A stretch of 11,816 nt of DNA, taken from positions 13,971 through 25,786 of the forward strand of contig CAZEBC010000037.1 in assembly GCA_964510165.1 (NCBI GenBank). The letters run 5' to 3'. This stretch comes from an uncultured bacterium. GTDB taxonomy: Bacteria > Abyssobacteria > SURF-5. The notes under the pieces are model-generated. The model did no database searches. It saw nothing but the letters and a program-made list of their open reading frames with translations, and had not been told where the DNA came from. The first letter of the stretch is position 1, and every line of letters starts with the position of its first letter. A program made the translations under genes and the position numbers. Positions 1-11,692 of the stretch are shown piece after piece.

Positions 1-1409
1 TCGCCCTCGAGGGCGACCTCGCCTTCGTGTTCGCGCATATACATGTAAACGATGACCCTGATATAGTAATAGGCCGCGACGACGCTTGTGAGGACGCCGA
101 TGATCGCGAGAGGCCAGTTATCGGTCAGTACCGCGGCTTTGAATATATACAGTTTACCGATAAAGCCGAATGTAGGGGGTATGCCAGTCAGCGACAGCAT
201 CAGAACGGCCATCAGAAGAGCGGTTATCGGCTTGCGCTTGGCAAGGCCTGCGTAATCGGAGAGCGATTCGCGGGGGTCGTTGGCCTTAGCGAGGCTGATG
301 ACAATGGCAAACGCTCCCAAATTCATGAACATATAGGCGAACAGATACACGAGGACGCTCATCATGGACTCCGGCTTGAGCGCCTCCATGACCGCCGCGA
401 GCTTCGGGTCACCCGAGGTTCTTGCCAGTTCGGTTGCCGAGCCGGCGGCCACAATGCCAATGAGCAGATAGCCTGCGTGCGCGATAGACGAGTACGCAAG
501 CATCCGTTTGATGTTCTGCTGGGAGACGGCGATGACGTTGCCGACGATCATCGTGAGGACCGACAATACCCAGAAGAGCAGTGTCCAGTCCGGAATCAGC
601 AAGTTAAATGATGTCATGTACACCCGCAGGATAACTGCGAATCCGGCGACCTTGGGGCCGACGGACATAAAGGCGGTCAACGGGGTCGGCGCTCCTTCGT
701 ACACGTCGGGAGTCCACATGTGAAACGGCACGGCGGCGATTTTGAAACCGAAGCCGACCGTCATCAGCACGAGCGACAGCGTAATCAGCCTTGAGTTCAG
801 CATGTTTTGCGTGAAGTCAAGGTAGCGTTGGATCCCGACAAGGTTGGTCGTTCCGGTGATCCCGTAGAAAAAGGACATTCCATAGAGCAAGACGGCCGAT
901 GCGAATGCTCCGAGGAGGAAATACTTCATTGAGGCCTCGGACGAGCGCGGATTCTCCCTCTGGAACCCGGCCATAAGATAAATGGAAATGGACATGAGCT
1001 CGAGGCCGATGTAAATGGTGATGAGGTCATTGGCGGCGACCATCACCATCATGCCGACGGTGGAGAAGAGTATCAGTTCGTAGTACTCGGCGGCATTGAT
1101 GTTGAAGAGCCGCAGATAGCGGGGCGACATGAGTATGGAGAAAGCGGCGGAAAGGACGAATATCAGTTTGAAAAACTGGGCGTAAGGGTCGACGGCCACC
1201 ATTCCGCCAAAGGCGGTTTCCTTTCGGTCCCAGATGAGCATGAGCAGCGTGATGAGAAAGGCAACGGCCAATCCCACGACGCCGATGGCAGTCAGCCCTG
1301 CCGGACGCTCTTTCTTCGCCAACAAGTCCACCACCAGCACGGTGAGCCCCACCAGCCCAACAATGAACTCAGGATAGACAGCCGTAATATCGACAACCGG
1401 AAGTTGCAT
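1..1409 (-). CDS. nuoN: NADH-quinone oxidoreductase subunit N (antiporter-like); 3' end runs off the window
   Basis: Not in the ORF track because it has no stop in the window; translated by hand from ATG at 1409 (GGAG RBS at 1420..1417): MQLPVVDITAVYPEFIVGLVGLTVLVVDLL...YIGLELMSISIY...SEASMKYFLLGAFAS...GFKIAAVPFHMWTPDVYEGAPTP...GPKVAGF...NIKRMLAYSSIAHAGY...SLTGIPPTFGFIGKLYIF...AYYYIRVIVYMY. The frame is open to the window edge, and the characteristic NuoN charged residues are intact. Confidence 0.96.
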   Translation of the reverse strand, partial: MQLPVVDITAVYPEFIVGLVGLTVLVVDLLAKKERPAGLTAIGVVGLAVAFLITLLMLIWDRKETAFGGMVAVDPYAQFFKLIFVLSAAFSILMSPRYLRLFNINAAEYYELILFSTVGMMVMVAANDLITIYIGLELMSISIYLMAGFQRENPRSSEASMKYFLLGAFASAVLLYGMSFFYGITGTTNLVGIQRYLDFTQNMLNSRLITLSLVLMTVGFGFKIAAVPFHMWTPDVYEGAPTPLTAFMSVGPKVAGFAVILRVYMTSFNLLIPDWTLLFWVLSVLTMIVGNVIAVSQQNIKRMLAYSSIAHAGYLLIGIVAAGSATELARTSGDPKLAAVMEALKPESMMSVLVYLFAYMFMNLGAFAIVISLAKANDPRESLSDYAGLAKRKPITALLMAVLMLSLTGIPPTFGFIGKLYIFKAAVLTDNWPLAIIGVLTSVVAAYYYIRVIVYMYMREHEGEVALEG

Positions 1410-1422
1410 TCTTCAGCTCCAC

Positions 1423-3264
1423 CTAATGGCCTGCAGGGCCTGATTGTCCTGGATGTTCGGGGGCTTGAGCTTCAACCCCGTGAACCGCCCCGACGGGCGG
1501 ATGCGCAGCTTCTCCCTGATGGACCTTTGCTCCGACGGACTGCATGCCTTCTTCGCCGCTCATGCCTGCATGCGAATCGGGCATTATCGGCGGATGACCG
1601 GGCGGTAGGATCGGTGGATGATCGGGTGGCAGGCTCAGTTCAAGGCCCGCCGGATGGCCCTGCCCTTTCATGCGGGCTTGTTCCAGCATCAGTTGCTTTT
1701 CTGCGAGTGCAGCCTTTGGATTAGAAACTTCAACGGTTTTCGCCACGGCGGCATCCATGAATTCGAGGAAGGGCTTCGGGTACAGCCCTATCCAAGCGCA
1801 CATAAGCACAATGGGGATGAGCGTCATGGCTTCCCGCAGGTCGAGGTCCTTCAAGGTCATGTTCTTCGGGTTTTCGAGCTTGCCGAACATCACGCGCTGA
1901 TACAGCCAGAGCATATAAGCGGCGCCCAGCACGATACCACTGGTGGCAAGCAGCACAAGCGTTCTTGAGACGGCAGTGTTCACGACGGCCGCCTCGTTCC
2001 ATAGTGCTCGGAAAGCGCCGACAAGGATCGTGAATTCGCCGATGAACCCGTTGAGTCCCGGCAGTCCGATCGAGGAGAGGGTGACCACCATAAACAGCGC
2101 AGCGTACAGCGGCATCTGTTTGCTGAGCCCTCCGAACTCCTTGATCATGCGAGTATGCCTGCGTTCGTAAATGAGGCCGACCACAAGGAACAGCGCCCCG
2201 GTGCTCAGGCCGTGGTTAATCATTTGAAGAATACCGCCTTCGATGCCCTGCTGGTTGAGCGCAAACACGCCGAGCATCACAAAGCCCAAGTGGCTGACGC
2301 TGGAATACGCAACCAGTTTCTTCATGTCGGGTTGCATCATCGCGGTCAGGGCGCCATAGACGATCCCGACGACGGCAAGTATGATGCCGTAAGGCATGAA
2401 CCACATGGTCGCATCGGGGAACAGCGGCAGACTGAACCTCACGAAGCCGTAGGTGCCCATTTTCAGCAAGACGCCGGCCAGGATGACGCTGCCCGCCGTA
2501 GGCGCCTCGGTGTGGGCGTCGGGCAACCAGGTATGGAACGGGAACATTGGCACCTTGATCGCGAAACCGACAAAGAAGGCGAGGAACAACCACTTCTCGA
2601 TATGGAACGGGATATCGAGGGCGTAGAACTTCATGATCTCGAAGGTGAGCACGTTGTGTTCCTGATAGTACAGGAAGTAAAGACCGAGGATCGCGAGCAG
2701 CATGAGCACGCTGCCTGCGAGCGTGTACAGGAAGAACTTTATCGCAGCATAGAGTTTGCGCTCGCCGCCCCACACGCCGATGAGGAAGTACATCGGAACC
2801 AGCATGACTTCCCAGAACACGTAGAAGAGGAAGAAGTCAAGCGAGAAGAACACGCCCAACATGCCGGTCTGAAGCAAGAGCATGAACACATAGTATTCCT
2901 TCACGCGCTCCTGTATTGCGGTCCACGACGAGAGCACCGCGAGCACGCCCAGGAACGTCGTGAGCATCACCAGAAGGATGCTGATGCCGTCAACGCCGAA
3001 GAAGTACTGAACGCCGAGGCTCTCGATCCATGGGACCTGTTCGACAAACTGAACGACGTGCCGGTCCTTGGCGAACCCCGTTATAAGGCGGAGCGAAATG
3101 ATGAAATCGACCAGGACCACGATGTTGGAGAACCATCGGATCGTGTTGTCTCGGCGCAGAAACAGCATTATGATGAGCGCGCCGAGAACCGGGATATAGG
3201 TGATTATCGAGAGTATGGGCCACTTCAGCCCCATGTCGTAATAGTTTAGTATTTCGGGCGTCAA
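1423..3264 (-). CDS. nuoM: NADH-quinone oxidoreductase subunit M, with a long His/Pro-rich C-terminal tail
   Basis: Motifs GVDGIS, FYVFWEVMLVPMYFLIGVWGG, FAIKVPMFPFHTWLPDAHTEAPT, LLKMGTYG, KKLVAYSSVSHLG, GLPGLNGFIGEF. TTG start preceded by GGGAGAG. Lies between nuoL and nuoN. Confidence 0.96.
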   Translation of the reverse strand: MTPEILNYYDMGLKWPILSIITYIPVLGALIIMLFLRRDNTIRWFSNIVVLVDFIISLRLITGFAKDRHVVQFVEQVPWIESLGVQYFFGVDGISILLVMLTTFLGVLAVLSSWTAIQERVKEYYVFMLLLQTGMLGVFFSLDFFLFYVFWEVMLVPMYFLIGVWGGERKLYAAIKFFLYTLAGSVLMLLAILGLYFLYYQEHNVLTFEIMKFYALDIPFHIEKWLFLAFFVGFAIKVPMFPFHTWLPDAHTEAPTAGSVILAGVLLKMGTYGFVRFSLPLFPDATMWFMPYGIILAVVGIVYGALTAMMQPDMKKLVAYSSVSHLGFVMLGVFALNQQGIEGGILQMINHGLSTGALFLVVGLIYERRHTRMIKEFGGLSKQMPLYAALFMVVTLSSIGLPGLNGFIGEFTILVGAFRALWNEAAVVNTAVSRTLVLLATSGIVLGAAYMLWLYQRVMFGKLENPKNMTLKDLDLREAMTLIPIVLMCAWIGLYPKPFLEFMDAAVAKTVEVSNPKAALAEKQLMLEQARMKGQGHPAGLELSLPPDHPPILPPGHPPIMPDSHAGMSGEEGMQSVGAKVHQGEAAHPPVGAVHGVEAQAPEHPGQSGPAGH

Positions 3265-3312
3265 CTCTTAACTCTCCCTTCCTTGGAAAGTTTGCAACAA
3301 CTTGCCTTCCCG

Positions 3313-5433
3313 TTATCTCAATACAATATAAATGCCCAGAAGCAGGATGATCCCGATCGCCATCGCCAGAGCGTAATTCTGAACGTAGCCCGTCTGGATG
3401 CGTCTGAGCATGCCACTTCCAACCTCAATCACTCTTCCCGCAAGGTTAACAAGACCGTCGATGACGCCGCCGTCAAACAGGATGGAGGCGCTGCTGAAGG
3501 CCCGTGTCGCGTAAGCGGCCCCGTTGACTATGCCATCGATAATGTTGGCGTCAAACCAGCAGAGGACAAGCGCGAACTGCTTGGTCCCGTTCACAAAGGC
3601 AAAGTTATAAATCTCGTCAACGTACCATTTGTTCAAGAGCGTCTTATGGAGCCGCGGGAGCTTAAATTGGAGCAGGAGCGGAATATTGGTATTCTTAATG
3701 TACATATAATAGCCGGTACCGATGCCGGCGCCTGCAATCAAGACGGAGACCGCCATCATGAGAAGCTCGAGGGAGCGCGAATGTTCTTCGCCTGCGGATG
3801 CGCCATGGGAAACGACCTCAGCGGCGTAGGCCAGCCCGCTTGTTATGGCGGCGTGCGCCCCATGCCCGCCGTGGGCCGCCTTGTCAACTATCGGCGCCAA
3901 GAAATGGTGGAAATGATTTGCTCCGCCGAGAGCGGCCGGCACGCCCACAAGGCCGCCTATGACCGACAAAACGGCGAGCGCCATGAGCGGATATATCATC
4001 GAGCCGGGCGACTCGTGCAGGTGATGCGCGGCCTCATGTGAAACCCTCGACTCACCATAGAAAGTCATGAATACAAGGCGCGACATATAGAATGCGGTCA
4101 TGAGCGCCGCGGTCGCGGCGACCGCCCAAAGGAACTTTCCCCACAGCGGGCCGAGGACCGGGGATTCATAGGTGAACGCCTTCCAGAGTATTTCGTCCTT
4201 GCTGAAAAATCCGGAGAACGGCGGTATTCCTGAGATGGCAAGATACGCGCACATGAACGTCCACCAGGTGTGTTTCATGTGTTTCCTGAGGCCGCCCATG
4301 TTGCGCATGTCTTGGTCGCCACTCATGCCGTGGATGACGCTGCCGGCCCCGAGGAACAGGAGGGCTTTGAAGAAAGCGTGAGTCATAAGATGGAAGATAC
4401 CTGCAGCATACGAAGCGACGCCGCAGGCCAGGAACATGTATCCGAGCTGGCTGACCGTTGAGTAGGCCAAGACCTTCTTTATGTCGTACTGAGCCATGCC
4501 GATGGTTGCCGAGAAGAACGCCGTGGCCGCCCCGACAGCAGCAACGACGGCGAGCGTGACGGGCGCCATCGAATACAGGGCGTTGCTGCGAGCTATCATA
4601 TATACGCCCGACGTAACCATCGTAGCGGCATGGATGAGCGCGCTGGTTGGAGTCGGGCCCTCCATCGCGTCCGGCAGCCACACGTAGAGTGGAATCTGCG
4701 CCGACTTGCCCGTCGCGCCCACGAAGAGAAACAGGGTAATCAAGGTAACGAGGGCGCCGCCCGCCTGGAGCTTGTGGGGCGCTTGCGCAAACACGTCCTG
4801 GTAATCAAGCGTGCCGAAAGTCAGAAATATCAACATCATTCCGAGCACGAACCCAAAGTCGCCGATGCGGTTAGTGACGAATGCCTTCTTCCCCGCGTTC
4901 GCGGCTGAGTCCTTCTCGAACCAGAACCCGATGAGAAGGTAAGAGCACAGTCCGACGCCTTCCCATCCGATAAACATCATAAGGAAATTGCCGCCCAGGA
5001 CGAGGATCAGCATGGCGCAGGTGAACAGATTCATGTATGCGAAGAAGCGGTACTGGCCGCCATCGCCGTGCATGTATCCCTTCGAGTAGACATGGATGAG
5101 GAAGCCGACACCGGTGACAACGAGGATCATGACCGACGAGAGCGCGTCAAGCTGGAACTTGAACGGTACCCTGAACGCCCCCATTTCGATCCAAGTGTAG
5201 ACTTCCTTTGTGAAGATGCGGGCGCCTTCCTCGTTCGGCATGATGCGCGACAGGGCGAGCACGCAGAGGACGGACGTTACAAAAGAGAGGAATATGGATG
5301 TGCACCCGATGACAGCAGGGACCAGTTCGGTCTTGCCCTGGAAAAATTTTCTGCCAAGGAGTCCTATCGTCAGGAAACCGATGAAAGGGAACAGCGGAAT
5401 TAACCAGATGTACTCTAGTACGTTGGTCATCAT
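3313..5433 (-). CDS. nuoL: NADH-quinone oxidoreductase subunit L, with an extended amphipathic helix
   Basis: Motifs LIHVYSKGYM, FIGWEGVGLCSYLLIGFW, KKAFVTNRIGDFG, GKSAQIPLYVWLPDAMEGPTPTSALIHAATMV, HLMTHAFFKALLFL, FSKDEIL, and C-terminal QTGYVQNYAL followed by a final TM. Confidence 0.97.
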   Translation of the reverse strand: MMTNVLEYIWLIPLFPFIGFLTIGLLGRKFFQGKTELVPAVIGCTSIFLSFVTSVLCVLALSRIMPNEEGARIFTKEVYTWIEMGAFRVPFKFQLDALSSVMILVVTGVGFLIHVYSKGYMHGDGGQYRFFAYMNLFTCAMLILVLGGNFLMMFIGWEGVGLCSYLLIGFWFEKDSAANAGKKAFVTNRIGDFGFVLGMMLIFLTFGTLDYQDVFAQAPHKLQAGGALVTLITLFLFVGATGKSAQIPLYVWLPDAMEGPTPTSALIHAATMVTSGVYMIARSNALYSMAPVTLAVVAAVGAATAFFSATIGMAQYDIKKVLAYSTVSQLGYMFLACGVASYAAGIFHLMTHAFFKALLFLGAGSVIHGMSGDQDMRNMGGLRKHMKHTWWTFMCAYLAISGIPPFSGFFSKDEILWKAFTYESPVLGPLWGKFLWAVAATAALMTAFYMSRLVFMTFYGESRVSHEAAHHLHESPGSMIYPLMALAVLSVIGGLVGVPAALGGANHFHHFLAPIVDKAAHGGHGAHAAITSGLAYAAEVVSHGASAGEEHSRSLELLMMAVSVLIAGAGIGTGYYMYIKNTNIPLLLQFKLPRLHKTLLNKWYVDEIYNFAFVNGTKQFALVLCWFDANIIDGIVNGAAYATRAFSSASILFDGGVIDGLVNLAGRVIEVGSGMLRRIQTGYVQNYALAMAIGIILLLGIYIVLR

Positions 5434-5454
5434 GTATGCCTTATCGCAGTTCTG

Positions 5455-5757
5455 TCACCATTTCAGAGAGTTTGCTTCGTCCACGTTGACGGCCCGGCTG
5501 ACCCTGAAGAGCGCAATCAATATGGCAAGGCCGGTGGCTGCCTCGGCCGCGGCCACCGTAATCACAAACACGGCGAACACCTGTCCGTGAGCCGAGTTGA
5601 GCTGGTTGGAGAAGGCCACCAGGTTGAGCCCGACGGCGTTGAGCATCAATTCTATCGACATGAAGATCACTATCAGGTTCCGTCTAATAAGGAACCCGAG
5701 CATCCCGATGCAGAACAGCACGGCGCCAAGCATCATCGAATGGGAAAGCGGAATCAT
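5455..5757 (-). CDS. nuoK: NADH-quinone oxidoreductase subunit K
   Basis: 100 aa with 3 TMs; [17 protein letters not shown] and [21 protein letters not shown] retain both conserved Glu. Its start overlaps the nuoJ stop (ATGA at 5757..5754). Confidence 0.96.
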
Positions 5758-6293
5758 CCGGCATGCTCCTTGATTGCGGATTCGGCGGGTTTCTTTGCGC
5801 GACGGGCAAGGATCACCGACCCTATCATAGCCACGAGCAGCAACACCGAAGCGATTTCAAATGGATACAAGTACGTGAGGAACAGTTCGCTGGCAAAATC
5901 GCGAGTTGTGTCAGCACGTACAACAGGCTCGACATCTTCTATGCTGAATGGGGTAATGCCCGGCCCGCTCACCTGAAGGATGATCACCATCAACAGGGCT
6001 GCGAACAGGACGGCAAAGAAAATCTGCCTAGGCTTGTGGAAGGCGGCCCGGACCGCCGCTTCTTTGGAGAGGTCCACGAGCATTATCACAAAGACATACA
6101 ACACGAGCACTCCGCCGGCGTAAATAATCAACTGCACGGCAGCCACAAACTCGGCGCTGAGCAGGAGATAGATTCCCGCGAGGCTGAAAAGCGTCACGAG
6201 CAGCCACAGGGCGGAATGCATGGGATTACGGCGGGTCACGACCATTACAGCGGACGCCAGAGCCACCGTGCCAAGGATATAAAATGAGGGCAT
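5754..6293 (-). CDS. nuoJ: NADH-quinone oxidoreductase subunit J
   Basis: [36 protein letters not shown], and [30 protein letters not shown] lies 3 nt after the stop of the upstream gene, with an AAGGA RBS inside that gene's 3' end. Confidence 0.94.
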
Positions 6294-6296
6294 CGC

Positions 6297-8885
6297 CTAT
6301 TCCTTCTTCGCACTGATGCCCGCAAGCCAAATCGGAGCGGGCTGCTCCGGCCTGAACACTGCGGCATCAAGTTTTCCGATCAATGCGCCCACAGTTTCGA
6401 AATCATGAGCTGGGACGCTGACGACTCCCGGCGGCAGTTCCCGGCTTATGCGCATGGGCAGTTTGGCAGAACCGCCACCTTTTACTCTTAACTCCACGAC
6501 AGCGCCGTCTTGAAGTCCCAGCGCCGCTGCATCATTTTCACTGAATTCCACCATTCCGTCAACACGCACCTTGCCCAGGCTCGCTGATCGCAGCGAGGTC
6601 CTTCCCCCAAAGTGGAGCATGTTATCGAATGTCAAGATGTAAGGATACTGGCCGTTGCCCGATGCCTGACTCTCCGTCACAACGGAAAGCCTGAGCCTTG
6701 TGCCGGCGGCTACCTTCGAGTAGTCCCAGGCGCCCACGCCGGCAAGCGGGTCGGCACCTATAAAATCATAAATGGGTGTCGAAGCGGCTATCTGGGAACG
6801 AGCCGCCTGAACTGTTTCCAATGCGGTCAACCCGAGCCTCTGCCCGAGCTCGGAGAGAATTTCAAGGTCCGAATATGCAGAACCAACGGGATCGATTGCC
6901 TTGCCGCTGTGCTGGACGATCCGGTAAGCATTTGTGTAGGATGCTTCGCGTTCCGCAAAACTGCAAGCGGGCAGAACAACGTGCGCCACCTCGGCGACAG
7001 GTCCGCCGAACACATCCTGCACGATCAGGCAATCAAGCCCCTGCAGCGACTCAAGCGGCACTCCGAGCAGGGCCATCTCCTTGCGAATGTCGCCGCCTAC
7101 CAGATAAAGAGCTTTTATGTCACCCGACTCGATACCATGAAGAATGGATGAAAGCCCGGCCGATCCGTTTGACACAGCCTCTTTGTAGCCTGGCAGGAAA
7201 TCGGGCGTGACGCCCATATCGAGCGCGCCTTGGGCGTTACCCTCCCGCAAGAGCGAGAGGGTCTTGCCACCCTTGAGCACGGCGAGGTTGACCGCGGCCC
7301 TGGCAATCGAGGAGTTCACGGCGGCATGAAGACTTCCCGGCGACAATACAACCAGGAAGTTCTTGGCGCTCGCAATACCTTCCGCGATTTCCGCAATGAT
7401 TGTTGGGTCAATCCCAGTGCGGGCGGCAGTGTCGTTGAGCGGGTATTTCATGAGATGCAGCCTGAGCTTATCAAAGCCTTCGGTGCGTCCTTTAAGGGCC
7501 GCCTCGTCAAGTGCGCCCTTCTCAACCATGATATTAGTGAGGCAATTGAGCAGTGCGGCCTCGGAGCCAGGTGTTGTTCGCGCATACTGGGTGCACTGCG
7601 TGGTAAACTTGTTCGAGCGGTGACCGACGACGTAGACCTTCGTTCCCTTCAAATGGAAGACGCGAAGCATCTCGAGGGCAGCCACCGGATGCGTGCAAAT
7701 AATATTTGAGTCAACTACCAGGATCGCGTCAGCATCATCTATGTCGGTGAGCGTCGCGGTTGGCGCGGGCACGCCGTATACGTCGGTCATTGTCTGCATG
7801 ACTGCGAAATTGTCGAGGCGAGCAAGGGTGTCCAGGGAATTGGCGCCGAGCCCGTCGCGCATCACCCGCTGGAATGCATAGAGGGCCTCGTTTGAGCAAC
7901 GAGCCGATGCCAGTCCGGCAACGCTGTTGCTTCCATGTTTCGAGATCGTCTTCTTCAGTTGATCGGCGGCATAATCGAGAGCCTCTTCCCACTCCACGTT
8001 CTTGAGGCTTCCGTTTTTGCGAATGGCCGGCGCAGTGAGGCGCGCTTCGCTGTGGACGGCATCCCTTCCAAACCTGCCGACCGAGCAGAGATTGCCTTTG
8101 TTATGTCCCTGGAAGTCGCGAACCGTGACCCGATAAACCTTATTGTTGCGGACGTTCAATTCGTGCGCGCAGCCGATCCCGCAGAAAGTGCATATCGAAT
8201 CCTTCTTCTCGAGTTGCCAGGCGCGCGCACTATAGCGAAACGTCGAGTCGATGATGGCGCCGACGGGGCAAACCGAGAGACATTGGGAACAACTTTCGCA
8301 CGGGTACCCGTCGAATTCGACCGGGCCCACTTTCGAGGCGAACCCGCTCCGAACCACGTAATCGATCGCGCGCGCTCCCTGCACTTCCTTGCAAATCTGA
8401 ACGCACCGCCCGCACATGATGCAGCGTGTGTGCCACAAGTCGAGCACCGGCGACAACTCCTCCTTGGTCTTTTCAGGCTTTGCCGACCAGAACGGCTGCT
8501 CGAGGACGCACATCTCGACGGTGATGTCCTGCACCTCGCATTCGCCCGCCTTGTCGCAGACCGGGCAGTCGAGCGGATGATGAAGGAGGACTAACTGGAG
8601 CATCTGTTTTCGCCGGCGGATGATTTCCTCGGTGTTGGTGCGAACGACCATTCCCTCACGCGCTTGAGTGTCACACGAGGCGACCGGCCTGTCCTCGCCC
8701 TCAACCTCGACAAGGCACACTCTGCATGCGCCGATGGGGAACAGTTTTGAATGATAGCAGAGGGTGGGAATATAGATTCCTGCCGATTCGGCTGCTTTGA
8801 GGATTGTCGTACCTTCGGGAACGCTTACCTTCTTGTCGTCTATAGTCAGATTTACCATCGGAAGTTCTTCTGCCCTTTGCTCCAT
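6297..8885 (-). CDS. sfrA: SfrA-like / NuoG-like iron-sulfur protein (molybdopterin-oxidoreductase fold without the Mo-ligand Cys); alpha subunit of an NADPH oxidoreductase module
   Basis: 2Fe-2S motif (PTLCYH..GACRVC..ASC), His-ligated cluster (HPLDCPVCDKAGEC), two ferredoxin-type motifs (CIMCGRCVQIC; CESCSQCLSVCP) and CTFCGIGC...NLC. The site equivalent to the FdhF Cys/Sec ligand reads DTLARLDN. Paired with an SfrB-like gene, as in Geobacter sfrBA (recognised from memory, not by search). Alternative start at 8858 (MVNLTID). Confidence 0.8.
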   Translation of the reverse strand: MEQRAEELPMVNLTIDDKKVSVPEGTTILKAAESAGIYIPTLCYHSKLFPIGACRVCLVEVEGEDRPVASCDTQAREGMVVRTNTEEIIRRRKQMLQLVLLHHPLDCPVCDKAGECEVQDITVEMCVLEQPFWSAKPEKTKEELSPVLDLWHTRCIMCGRCVQICKEVQGARAIDYVVRSGFASKVGPVEFDGYPCESCSQCLSVCPVGAIIDSTFRYSARAWQLEKKDSICTFCGIGCAHELNVRNNKVYRVTVRDFQGHNKGNLCSVGRFGRDAVHSEARLTAPAIRKNGSLKNVEWEEALDYAADQLKKTISKHGSNSVAGLASARCSNEALYAFQRVMRDGLGANSLDTLARLDNFAVMQTMTDVYGVPAPTATLTDIDDADAILVVDSNIICTHPVAALEMLRVFHLKGTKVYVVGHRSNKFTTQCTQYARTTPGSEAALLNCLTNIMVEKGALDEAALKGRTEGFDKLRLHLMKYPLNDTAARTGIDPTIIAEIAEGIASAKNFLVVLSPGSLHAAVNSSIARAAVNLAVLKGGKTLSLLREGNAQGALDMGVTPDFLPGYKEAVSNGSAGLSSILHGIESGDIKALYLVGGDIRKEMALLGVPLESLQGLDCLIVQDVFGGPVAEVAHVVLPACSFAEREASYTNAYRIVQHSGKAIDPVGSAYSDLEILSELGQRLGLTALETVQAARSQIAASTPIYDFIGADPLAGVGAWDYSKVAAGTRLRLSVVTESQASGNGQYPYILTFDNMLHFGGRTSLRSASLGKVRVDGMVEFSENDAAALGLQDGAVVELRVKGGGSAKLPMRISRELPPGVVSVPAHDFETVGALIGKLDAAVFRPEQPAPIWLAGISAKKE

Positions 8886-8889
8886 GCCC

Positions 8890-10851
8890 TTACGAGGCGG
8901 TCATCATAATCCTGTAGCACCGCATGCAGCGCTCGGCCTCGGCTACGGCCGTCTGCTCGCTGAATCCCAACTCGACTTCCTTCAAATTGCCGATCCGCTC
9001 CTTCGGTGGAAGGGCGGGCATCTTTGCGCGCTTTAAACCGCTCACGCCTGCGCAATATTCCTCTTTATCGACCGGCCCGAGCGCCTGGATGATCTTGCGC
9101 ATCCGCATCAACCTGTCGAAGTCGTCATGCTTTCCGCCGCTCAGGTACTTGTCAATCGAGACCGCTGCCTGAAGACCTTGCTGCACCGCGAGGATTACGG
9201 ACTGAGGGCCGGTTGCGGCGTCTCCGCCCGCGAACACGCCGGGCAGCGTGGTTGCGAGGGAATCGGGGTCGACCTCAAACGTGCTGTACTTGGTGATTCC
9301 AAGCCCGTCAATCGTTTTGAAGTAATCCATGTCCGGCGCCTGGCTGACCGCGGCAATCACAAGATCGGCCTCTATCACAAACTCGGAGCCCTTCACGGGC
9401 ACCGGCCTGCGACGCCCGCTCTGGTCAGGCTCGCCGAGTTCCATCCGTATGCATTCAATGCCTTTGACCTTGCCGTTTTCGCCGATGACCCGGGTGGGCG
9501 CGGCCAGGAAGTGCAGCTTCACGCCTTCGTGCTCGGCCTCTTCCACCTCCCACGGGCTGGCGGGCATCTCGGCGCGGGTTCGTCGATAGACGATGTTCAC
9601 GTCCTCGTAGCCCAAATGGACCGGCACACGCGCGCAGTCGATTGCAGAGTTTCCGCCTCCAATCACTATTACCTTCTTGCCGGAAGGAGGCGGCTCGCCA
9701 AGGTTTATTCGGCGGAGAAAGTCCATGGCATCCATGATGCCCTCGTTTTCTTCCTCGCCGGGGATTTCGAGCTTTCGGCCCTTCATCGCGCCGATGGCCA
9801 GAAAGACGGCCTTGAAACCCTGCGCAAACAAATCCTGAATGGAAAAATCCTTCCCGAGCGCGGTGTTGGTCTTTACCTGCACTCCATATTCCTGCACCTG
9901 CTCGATTTCGCCGTTGACGATGTCGCGCGGCAGGCGGTAGGCCGGTATTCCAAGATGAGTAGTGCCCCCGACAACGGGAGCGGCCTCGAAGATGGTGACG
10001 TCATAATCCCATGCGGCAAGCTCGCGCGCGCATGTTGCACCCGCTGGCCCGCTTCCGACAACGGCCACTTTCCCCTTTTCCCCCGTAGACCGATGTGGGG
10101 CGAATCGGAACTGCTTCTGCCTGATAAGCTTCTTCTCGTAATCTGAGACGGACCGCTTCAGGTAAGCTATGGAGATCGGCTCGTCAACTTCGCCTCGCTT
10201 GCACAGCGTCTCGCATGGATGGAAGCACGCACGGCCGCATACCGCCGCAAACGGGTTCGGCGCGCGGGCAACATCTATGGCTGTATTGTATTTGTGTTCT
10301 CGTATGAGTTCAATGTAACGCGCTGCGTCGGTCGAGGCGGGGCAACCGATATTGCACGGCGCCATCATGATCGATTCGGTCGGCGCCGCCGCGCACTTCT
10401 TGCCCTTCAAGTGGGCCTCGAATTCGGCATGGAAGTTATCAAGCGCATCAAGGAGCGGCTTCTCCATCGCGATGCCGAAACCGCACAGCGCCGTGCTGCG
10501 GATGTCGCTTACGAGTGGTCTTAGCCTCTCGACGTCACAGATATCGCCCTCGCCGCTTGCGATCCGGGACAGCGTATCATATATAACGCGCGAACCGACC
10601 CGGCAGGGAAAACACTTGCCGCACGACTTCGCCTGCACCTGCTCGAAGAAGCTGGTCATCAACTGAACGACGCACACATCCTGGCTCAGCAGGACGAGAC
10701 CGCCCCATCCGACGACCGCTTTGAGGTTCGGCGGGCATTTGTCACTTGCGAAAAACTTCGTGTGAGCGGCGGGGATTTTGTCGGCGGTCTCCTCGCCAGC
10801 CAGTTTTCCGCATGGTTTCACAAACCAACTGTCAAAAAAAATCTCGGCCAA
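8890..10851 (-). CDS. sfrB: SfrB-like FAD/Fe-S NADP(H) oxidoreductase (N-terminal NuoF-type 4Fe-4S domain + GltD/NfnB-like domain)
   Basis: SCGKCFPCRVG...ALCGFG (NuoF N3-type cluster), APCNIGCPA and VCGRACFHPCETLCKR (GltD-type Fe-S domain), VAVVGSGPAG (FAD), GIPAYRLP, VIGGGNSAIDC followed by YRR (NADPH-type site), PGVFAGGD, and C-terminal EAERCMRCYR. TTG start with a GGGAGAG RBS. Confidence 0.85.
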   Translation of the reverse strand: MAEIFFDSWFVKPCGKLAGEETADKIPAAHTKFFASDKCPPNLKAVVGWGGLVLLSQDVCVVQLMTSFFEQVQAKSCGKCFPCRVGSRVIYDTLSRIASGEGDICDVERLRPLVSDIRSTALCGFGIAMEKPLLDALDNFHAEFEAHLKGKKCAAAPTESIMMAPCNIGCPASTDAARYIELIREHKYNTAIDVARAPNPFAAVCGRACFHPCETLCKRGEVDEPISIAYLKRSVSDYEKKLIRQKQFRFAPHRSTGEKGKVAVVGSGPAGATCARELAAWDYDVTIFEAAPVVGGTTHLGIPAYRLPRDIVNGEIEQVQEYGVQVKTNTALGKDFSIQDLFAQGFKAVFLAIGAMKGRKLEIPGEEENEGIMDAMDFLRRINLGEPPPSGKKVIVIGGGNSAIDCARVPVHLGYEDVNIVYRRTRAEMPASPWEVEEAEHEGVKLHFLAAPTRVIGENGKVKGIECIRMELGEPDQSGRRRPVPVKGSEFVIEADLVIAAVSQAPDMDYFKTIDGLGITKYSTFEVDPDSLATTLPGVFAGGDAATGPQSVILAVQQGLQAAVSIDKYLSGGKHDDFDRLMRMRKIIQALGPVDKEEYCAGVSGLKRAKMPALPPKERIGNLKEVELGFSEQTAVAEAERCMRCYRIMMTAS

Positions 10852-10875
10852 TGATTTCTCTCCCGATACTCAACC

Positions 10876-10968
10876 CTGCGCGATATGGGGCTATCGCACA
10901 GTCACTATGCCGGAGATGGCGGGCATCTTTCGGGGCTTCGGTCCAAAATCCTCCAAACGGCCCCGAAA
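10876..10968 (-). other. Structured 5' leader with three consecutive hairpins
   Basis: Inverted repeats: TTTCGGGGC/GCCCCGAAA (10928-10936 / 10960-10968, perfect 9 bp); ATGCC/GGCAT (10907-10911 / 10922-10926); and CUGUGCGAUA/UAUCGCGCAG on the mRNA (10901..10892 / 10885..10876, 10 bp with one G-U). Confidence 0.5.
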
Positions 10969-10981
10969 TTCACAAGCATAT

Positions 10982-11010
10982 TTTATAGCATGTTTCGCAA
11001 TGGATGTCAA
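10982..11010 (-). promoter_or_regulatory. sigma70-type promoter of the sfrBA-nuoJKLMN operon
   Basis: The minus strand reads TTGACA (11010..11005), a 17-nt spacer ending in TGC (extended -10 TGn), then TATAAA (10987..10982). An A/T tract upstream (11032..11042) may act as an UP element. Predicted TSS is about 10975. Confidence 0.8.
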
Positions 11011-11090: not shown

Positions 11091-11525
11091 TCACGTCTTC
11101 TGCGGCCCCGGAACCGGGAACGCCACCGGCTTTATCGAGCGGAATATGTTGTAAACGAAAAATAAGATCGAGACCACATGCCCAATGCCGGAAACTGCGA
11201 TCCCTGCGCGCATCGCGCCGACATACGGCGTCATCTCCATGGCTGTCCAGAAAACCGCCATCAGCGCCAGCGTCACGGTCCCGAGATAATAATGCGCCAC
11301 CATCAAGGTCCGGCTGTGAATCAGCATACCGCTAAACCTGGGCAAAACATGGTAACCTACTCCGTAAATCATCATTGCCATGAACCCGAGCAGGTTCAGG
11401 TGAGTGTGCGCATTGACGAAATAGAGTGCATGGTACGGAAACATGGCCATATCGATGCCCAGGGCCGAGCCTGTAATCAGGCTGACCAGGCTTGTCTTGA
11501 TGAACAGAATCACATACTTGTCCAT
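11091..11525 (-). CDS. Small 4-TM membrane protein resembling the HxH (heme-ligand) segment of heme-copper oxidase / cbb3 subunit I
   Basis: The likely start is ATG at 11525 (MDKYVILF, 144 aa) with a GAGGAGG RBS 8 nt upstream, rather than the TTG at 11561. It has four hydrophobic segments and the motif AHTHLNLLGFMAMMIYGVGYHVLPRFSG. Confidence 0.75.
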   Translation of the reverse strand: MDKYVILFIKTSLVSLITGSALGIDMAMFPYHALYFVNAHTHLNLLGFMAMMIYGVGYHVLPRFSGMLIHSRTLMVAHYYLGTVTLALMAVFWTAMEMTPYVGAMRAGIAVSGIGHVVSILFFVYNIFRSIKPVAFPVPGPQKT

Positions 11526-11557
11526 GGCGTCTACCTCCTCCGTTGACTCTCTCTGCC

Positions 11558-11692
11558 TCAAGGTTCCTTCATTCGGTCATCAACTATCTTGCTGTCATGG
11601 AGAAGCACCAGTCTTCGCGCATACTTCATGACCATATTGTCCTGCGTGGAAAAGAGGAAGGTGATTTCTCTCCGTTCATTCATTTCCTTCAT
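11558..11692 (-). pseudogene. C-terminal remnant of a LolD/MacB-type ABC transporter ATP-binding protein
   Basis: Hand translation: MKEMNERREITFLFSTQDNMVMKYARRLVLLHDSKIVDDRMKEP*. This matches the post-D-loop end of LolD-like ATPases (TxxxxTHD...A.R...L.DG.I), with the H-loop His replaced by Gln and DG by DS. The frame hits a stop about 10 codons upstream, and no Walker A/B is present in frame. Confidence 0.65.

Follow-up and report, generated by a model that had tools for sequence, protein, structure and literature searches.

The window analysed here is a stretch of 11,816 nucleotides (nt) from an uncultured bacterium of the Abyssobacteria (contig CAZEBC010000037.1, positions 13,971 to 25,786 of the forward strand), in which genes for an SfrB-like flavoprotein and an SfrA-like iron-sulfur (Fe-S) protein run directly into the genes for part of the membrane arm of complex I, nuoJ to nuoN. 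The pair, SfrBA, is probably the docked input module of a complex I that links nicotinamide adenine dinucleotide phosphate, NADP(H), to menaquinone and is encoded in two loci, a reading of the sequence evidence to which a probability of about 0.72 is given. Complex I enzymes are known to take electrons from NADH, ferredoxin, flavodoxin, or F420H2. For a complex I that is NADPH-fed or reduces NADP+ there is a proposal, based on a single gene cluster of the Campylobacterota (10.1101/717884). The source genome of the window is denoted G000, with other G numbers for compared genomes and L numbers for compared loci. The features of the operon are as follows.

10982..11010, minus strand: sigma-70-type candidate promoter, TTGACA-17 nt-TATAAA with an extended -10 (TG), 11/12 match
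10849..10925, minus strand: conserved leader hairpin with its outer stem over the Shine-Dalgarno of sfrB
8890..10851, minus strand: sfrB-like, SfrB-type flavoprotein, 653 amino acids (aa), TTG start, named from domains and motifs
6297..8885, minus strand: sfrA-like, NuoG-like Fe-S protein, 862 aa, named from domains and motifs
5754..6293, minus strand: nuoJ, named from Pfam/NCBIfam
5455..5757, minus strand: nuoK, named from Pfam/NCBIfam and charged residues
3313..5433, minus strand: nuoL, the sole complex-I-type nuoL found in G000, named from Pfam/NCBIfam
1423..3264, minus strand: nuoM, His/Pro-rich in its C-terminal tail and the sole complex-I-type nuoM found in G000, named from Pfam/NCBIfam
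1..1409, minus strand: nuoN, truncated at the window edge, named from Pfam/NCBIfam

The open reading frames (ORFs) of the window place all seven genes in one orientation on the minus strand, and Pfam and NCBIfam models back the gene names. From sfrB to nuoN the gaps are 4, 3, -4, 21, 48, and 13 nt. The 4-nt gap between sfrB and sfrA, as described in an earlier sequence-only reading, stands if the first ATG of sfrA is used; it becomes 31 nt if translation starts at M10, the residue that matches the start in most relatives. The charged residues of the membrane arm are present in NuoK (E36/E72), NuoL (E158/K243/K356/K412), NuoM (E152/K237/K268/H351/E410), and NuoN (E137/K223/K253/K419), as is Y58 of NuoJ. 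The catalytic role of these residues is known from work on E. coli. The gene order, common orientation, and intact charged residues of the earlier reading were borne out, as was its single promoter. Apart from the candidate at 11010-10982, the window has no site that matches at 10/12 or more. All six same-family relatives with sufficient upstream DNA have a 10-11/12 match at the equivalent site, the upstream DNA of G007 being too short for the comparison. In G010, no such site lies above the sfrB start used. A consensus scan that demands T as the sixth -10 base misses this TATAAA promoter. Downstream of nuoN, the contig holds an N-gap in the assembly and an F-type atp operon; a strong promoter closely preceding the atp operon fits a housekeeping role in energy metabolism.

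SfrB is composed of a short N-terminal domain, a NuoF-type N3 4Fe-4S domain (PF10589, residues 64-147, with ligands C77, C80, C83, and C123), and a GltD/NfnB-type domain for Fe-S clusters, flavin adenine dinucleotide (FAD), and NADP(H). Its motifs are GSGPAG at 266, GGGNSA at 398, YRR at 422, and a C-terminal CxxC at 642/645, and its closest solved relatives, by sequence and by fold, are NfnABC, StnC, NfnI, GltD, and DPD. The GxGxxA motif has been linked to NADP(H) (PMC7483475) and YRR to the phosphate of NADP(H) (10.1101/717884), and SfrB probably prefers NADP(H). No NuoE and no domain for flavin mononucleotide (FMN) and NADH (PF01512) were found among the window proteins, in agreement with the sequence-only reading, though SfrB keeps the N3 domain of NuoF. 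SfrA carries the cluster motifs N1b, N5, N4, and N7, plus a second 4Fe-4S motif next to N4. It reads DTLARLDN where FdhA of the same genome has the Cys/Sec-His molybdenum-ligand motif DHCARLCH; judged by these motifs, SfrA appears to be an electron wire rather than a catalytic subunit. The ESM Atlas yielded nothing closer than family-level look-alikes.

The remainder of the complex is encoded elsewhere in G000, a genome that is 97% complete and has two nuoD and two nuoH genes. A headless cluster (G000:C127) reads nuoA-B-C-D-H-I, without a head and without nuoJ-N. With NuoJ, K, L, M, and N from the window and NuoA and NuoH from C127, the membrane arm is complete; the quinone module of NuoB, C, D, and I is on C127, outside the window. 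NuoE and the FMN/NADH-binding NuoF are in neither the window nor C127, and the N3 domain alone is kept, in SfrB. Taken together, the window and C127 supply every part of a complex I, SfrBA standing in the place expected for NuoEFG. The gene content and motifs, the conservation described below, and this complementarity of the two loci are seen directly in the genomes. The head had earlier been described as wired directly to the proton-pumping arm; it is joined with nuoJ-N, but NuoABCDHI from the second locus are needed as well.

Within the phylum, represented by 11 genomes (G000 and 10 relatives), the adjacency sfrB-sfrA-nuoJ-nuoK is present in all 11, and the SfrA proteins of the relatives are 38-75% identical to that of G000. 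An adjacency unique to this assembly, which would have spoken against the sequence-only reading, is not what the phylum shows. The operon continues through nuoN to the atp genes in 8/11 genomes and ends at contig edges in the remaining 3; in G010, sfrB is divided between two contig ends. The headless cluster, with nuoD immediately before nuoH, also occurs in 11/11, and in none of the 9 genomes whose contig continues does nuoJ follow its nuoI. Each operon contains one NuoG-like gene (11/11), and a second NuoG, a ferredoxin, or a catalytic subunit gene was found in the operon of none of the 11. Logan contigs of run X1 span both the sfrA/nuoJ and the sfrB/sfrA junctions, but the assembly possibly derives from X1, so these contigs are given no weight here; the listed pieces of runs X2-X4 span neither junction.

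A second cluster in G000 (G000:C98:731-11099, plus strand) reads nuoB-C-D-E-A-F-G-H-I-J-K-N, with a NuoG of 527 aa and without nuoL and nuoM. Clusters of this type are whole in 7/11 genomes (G000, G001, G002, G004, G006, G008, and G009) and partial in G007, the loci in relatives being L056-L059, L061, and L062; NuoF and NuoN from the G006 copy pass the NCBIfam cut-offs. The C98-type cluster may encode a complex I with one antiporter subunit or one that takes its L and M subunits from the operon of the window. A conventional nuoEFG set serving the arm from elsewhere would have undermined the earlier reading. Such a set is present on C98, but the cluster there encodes A, H, I, J, K, and N as well and lacks only L and M. 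G010, which is 96% complete and has one nuoD and one nuoL, keeps the operon with no NuoF found. Because no NuoE-type match passes the cut-off in G010 and its PF01512 matches are RnfC only, its arm appears to be served by no NuoEF.

Outside the phylum, four other lineages have SfrBA in an unsplit nuo operon, ordered either ABCD-sfrB-sfrA-HIJKLMN or sfrB-sfrA-ABCDHI-JKLMN. The genome search proposed with the sequence-only reading, for SfrB/SfrA homologs next to nuoJ-N, gives that adjacency in the phylum and these unsplit operons beyond it. The former order is present in G031 and G075. In the phylum of G031 (38 genomes, 36 with a match), nuoD-sfrB-sfrA recurs in 30/30 loci fetched, and a homolog carries the name Candidatus Acidulodesulfobacterium. 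The same operon is seen in the phylum of G357 (6 genomes), in 4/4 matches, and in G078, G245, G395, and metagenome locus L175. The phylum of G427, taken as Nitrospinota from a named homolog, has a match in 28/33 genomes. Here nuoA is the next gene in 27/28, and the preceding gene is sfrB-type in 21/28 and NuoF-like in 7/28. The full order sfrB-sfrA-ABCDHI-JKLMN is seen in G462 and G455, while G121 and G463 have an equal gene order but a NuoF-like head. G121 and G455 belong to one family and share the gene order and a similar upstream gene, and they are sisters in the trees of NuoD (support 100/99), NuoH (94/80), NuoM (100), and NuoN (82). The NuoG and SfrA sets form separate clades, and the head and its G subunit therefore appear to have been swapped together on one chassis. 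A shared NuoG clade for the F-headed and SfrB-headed Nitrospinota operons was rejected, the tree giving two.

PF10588, the NuoG N5 motif, matches no protein other than the operon's SfrA in G010, G031, G455, G357, and G078 (5/5). The PF01512 search found nothing in G031, G455, and G357, and in these three, as in G010, no NuoE-type match passed the cut-off. Comparative genomics across the phylum and the other lineages supports the earlier proposal that SfrB stands in for NuoEF and SfrA for NuoG.

Several variants of these operons were seen. Tandem complex I operons occur at L240, L241, and L318 (G357, G204, and G439), the second of each having sfrB and a split sfrA. Such split genes, of about 345 and 530-535 aa, also occur in G078, G245, G395, and some loci without nuo genes. 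At L310 (G214), a nuo operon contains, between nuoJ and nuoK, EF-G together with a second set of E, F, and GltD-like genes. At L315 (G442), ordered sfrB-sfrA-ABCDHIJK, the genes past nuoK match NuoM and MrpD better than NuoL, which suggests an altered membrane arm.

The headless NuoD and NuoH of 11/11 genomes are sister to the subunits of the Nitrospinota-type operon, with support of 100/100 (trees of 46 and 39 rows, respectively). G013, which has a nuoE-G-D locus of the Nitrospina NUO-2 layout, groups with this NuoD clade. Deletion of ABCDHI from sfrB-sfrA-ABCDHI-JKLMN yields the window's gene order, and this order may most simply have arisen from such an operon by relocation of the ABCDHI block.

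From the two loci we infer the assembly, NADP(H) specificity, electron path, and proton pumping of the complex, the path being modelled on the canonical enzyme. SfrB and SfrA would replace NuoEFG as the head through which electrons enter, on NuoABCDHI supplied by the headless cluster and NuoJKLMN supplied by the window. NADPH would pass a hydride to the FAD of the SfrB GltD domain, and electrons would move through the two 4Fe-4S clusters of that domain to the kept N3 cluster. SfrB would dock through N3 on SfrA as NuoF does on NuoG. The onward route would be N1b, N4, and N5 of SfrA, N6a/N6b of NuoI, N2 of NuoB, and then menaquinone, with pumping by the full L-M-N-K-J-A-H arm. MqnC was above the cut-off in 5/5 genomes tested. 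The potentials are about -74 mV for menaquinone and -320 to -370 mV for NADPH. Because the transfer of 4 protons per 2 electrons is near equilibrium at these potentials, the enzyme should be reversible. Net NADPH oxidation in this lineage is marginally the better bet than not, and NADP+ reduction driven by the proton motive force (pmf) falls a little short of even odds.

The co-folding check proposed earlier was made with SfrA and the headless NuoI. The pair scored 0.52 against 0.01 for the best control, with contact agreement of at least 0% and partner predicted local distance difference test (pLDDT) of at least 77. The mark used is reached by 116/157 solved and 2/215 mismatched pairs, and 18 of the solved pairs and both mismatches score 0.60 or less. 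Because pairs of the NuoG-NuoI type have solved structures, the score may reflect what the model had memorised.

A number of observations weigh against an SfrBA-headed complex I. The co-fold runs gave 0.56, 0.00, and 0.52, one of them null, and lend weak support. The preference for NADP(H) is read from motifs only. SfrA scores 409 with the NCBIfam NuoG model, below the cut-off of 470. The GltD domain of the window protein lies outside a 38-row clade of other stand-alone SfrB-type proteins, and for this reason the name SfrB follows the architecture. The trees of SfrA, SfrB, NuoM, and NuoN, made by a quick method (LG+G4) with long-branch warnings, leave the window proteins unplaced and not joined to the Nitrospinota-type operon. 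A true NuoEFG in G000 and most of the family could feed the headless module, as could other HydB-like modules in G000. SfrB-type genes also occur apart from nuo genes. In a survey outside families f1, f2, and f23 (a 390-genome sample, 3 candidates scored per genome), 15 stand-alone near full-length sfrB-type genes were found, 6 in nuo operons and 9 elsewhere. Of 14 SfrB-type genes in G343's phylum, none has a nuo neighbour at up to 1.5 kb, and such neighbours accompany 0/11 matches in the phylum of G307 and 2/79 metagenome loci. SfrB-type genes are modular and serve other partners too.

The last of these points would agree with SfrBA being a soluble NADPH oxidoreductase linked to nuoJ-N by no more than a common promoter. 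The headless module would then be fed directly by ferredoxin or borrow NuoEFG from C98, where it is encoded. Geobacter sfrBA forms a separate operon (PMC2817479), and headless complexes, probably ferredoxin-fed, are described (PMC13040438, PMC5165239). This is nevertheless unlikely, given that in three lineages and in L175 the pair lies between nuoD and nuoH, exactly where EFG belongs, that in a fourth lineage its place is taken in some genomes by a NuoF-like head, that G010 keeps the operon though NuoE and NuoF were not found, and that a NuoG-like protein without a catalytic site requires a docking partner. SfrBA might instead dock and branch, passing electrons from quinol jointly to NADP+ and ferredoxin or working with an extra catalytic subunit such as a formate dehydrogenase or hydrogenase. 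A branching head has been proposed for Sulfurimonas and for Nitrospina NUO-2 from features that SfrA shares, an extra 4Fe-4S motif beside N4 and a retained N7 (10.1101/717884, PMC3578206). The closest structures to SfrB are the bifurcating NfnABC, StnABC, and NfnI, Moorella has an SfrB2-SfrA2 pair with FdhF3, and SfrA is split into 345 and 530 aa in several lineages. Against branching, the non-bifurcating GltD and DPD have equal fold to SfrB, and in the operons of the 11 genomes neither a further NuoG gene nor one for a ferredoxin or a catalytic subunit was found; branching is judged an improbable alternative.

Two further explanations carry very little weight. Homologs of the pair bear the database names formate dehydrogenase alpha and beta subunit, the second-best NCBIfam model of SfrA is Fdh-alpha, and the top PDB matches are FdhA, so that the genes could be taken for an NADP-dependent formate dehydrogenase beside an unrelated antiporter block. 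The Fdh-alpha score of 348 is under the cut-off of 666, and the membrane genes of the window are nuo-type, not Mrp, which in G000 is on C33. The formate dehydrogenase identity was rejected on the Cys/Sec-His metal ligand motif that SfrA lacks, and its probability is very slight. Still less probable is an adjacency produced by assembly chimera or recent rearrangement. The assembly has 325 contigs and an N-gap beside the window, yet the junction recurs in 10/10 relatives, and this explanation was ruled out.

The proposed SfrBA-headed complex I has partial counterparts. In Sulfurimonas, an NfnB-like protein (Suden_1824) was suggested, as a hypothesis, to replace NuoF, with reverse reduction of NAD(P)+ and ferredoxin (10.1101/717884). 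The window has in common with Sulfurimonas/Sulfurovum a GltD/NfnB-family protein with a Tyr-Arg-Arg phosphate site in place of NuoF and an extra cluster in NuoG. Sulfurimonas has two NuoG copies and a non-canonical NuoEF, whereas the window has one NuoG-like gene, and the window head differs in keeping the NuoF N3 domain, in its two loci, and in the phyla concerned. With SfrAB of Geobacter sulfurreducens it shares the order sfrB then sfrA and the combination of one protein resembling GltD with one resembling NuoG (PMC7483475). Geobacter SfrAB is tied to NADP regeneration, has its own operon, and is called soluble (PMC7483475, PMC2817479, PMC2825233, PMC13186404); the window pair is embedded in a nuo operon, not a separate two-gene operon. 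A scan of genome contigs for the Geobacter pair gave 6 loci, every one from a close relative, and look-ups of homologs, representatives, and clusters returned no protein named SfrA or SfrB. A Geotalea homolog, 37% identical, may be a NuoG, and against 401 genomes (2 candidates scored per genome) it gave 8 matches, none above 45% identity.

Canonical 14-subunit complex I shares the membrane arm, quinone module, and NuoG-type chain (PMC4453560) but has NuoE and an FMN/NADH domain in place of an FAD/NADP(H)-type head. The second complex I of Nitrospina gracilis (NUO-2) also has an FMN-less head (PMC3578206), and NUO-2/Kuenenia resemble the window in a non-canonical FMN-less head, a NuoG with one extra 4Fe-4S, and several loci (PMC3578206, PMC10839748). 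NuoF2 of NUO-2 is NuoF-like, with a 2Fe-2S and two ferredoxin-type clusters and ferredoxin as its proposed product, whereas the window head is GltD-type. Stn/NfnABC/Nso contain GltD-like and NuoG-like domains and provide the best sequence and fold matches of SfrB (PMC7483475; PDB 8oh5, 9bov, 9n5u); these are soluble enzymes that lack a membrane arm and contain a complete NuoEF-like module that binds FMN. The complex would work like the Sulfurimonas proposal and be built like SfrAB, and membership in neither is claimed.

The sequence-only reading had left novelty open. That a subunit of the NfnB/GltD type takes the place of NuoF has already been suggested in print (10.1101/717884). No sfrB-sfrA pair within a nuo operon was found described in the literature searched, which did not extend to supplements and most subscription papers, and the available part of a Nitrospinota survey mentions no such pair (PMC10839748). 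The concept is anticipated; its breadth and the head exchange were not found in that literature. An SfrBA-type head in nuo operons of five lineages makes a class of NADP(H) complex I concrete; several near-complete genomes offer no other possible head, and at one locus SfrBA and a NuoF-like head replace each other. An old question can now be put to the test: does SfrAB of the Geobacter type dock on complex I to regenerate NADP+? These operons are masked by automatic names such as formate dehydrogenase beta and glutamate synthase small chain, so that such genomes are likely misread as having a headless, ferredoxin-fed complex I.

A wider scheme is speculative and rather unlikely. NADP(H)-specific pumping complex I would be a recurring class in at least five lineages, with SfrBA as a head that can be exchanged, coupled in this family via menaquinone to the C98-type NADH complex I as a pmf-linked NADH/NADPH transhydrogenase replacing PntAB. 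The partner would be the short-armed nuoBCDEAFGHIJKN complex, with one antiporter subunit and no L or M. G000 gave no PntB match; the genome carries dsrA, acetyl-CoA synthase, and rnf-type genes.

Some minor observations concern the same genomes and the window. PntB was found in 1/11 phylum genomes, G010 (G010:C12:3840-5189), and was absent from the search results in 10/10 family genomes; G010 is also the sole near-complete genome without an NADH-type complex I, a single and anecdotal contrast. On G000:C8, dsrA and its neighbour occur twice on one contig (7853-10059 and 22141-24347) with identical scores, as a duplication or an assembly repeat, either being possible. In G003 (77% complete), nuoJ lies in two overlapping frames (L044:1259-1838), by frameshift or sequence error. 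The leader hairpin has a CCCC-containing loop, and its outer stem pairs a CUCC stretch with the Shine-Dalgarno of sfrB; z-scores range from -0.43 to -4.05 in 8 genomes, changes are two-sided in 4/15 pairs, and Rfam gave no match of note. Translational control of sfrB by this hairpin is possible. Upstream of the promoter, an ORF for a small membrane protein (11091-11561, minus strand) has a weak COX1-family match below the cut-off; the upstream regions of relatives hold no match to it, and it is probably outside the operon. The His/Pro-rich tail of NuoM is about 90 residues long (window 1423-1700, minus strand), and NuoL has a His/Gly/Ala-rich insertion (window about 3780-3900, minus strand).

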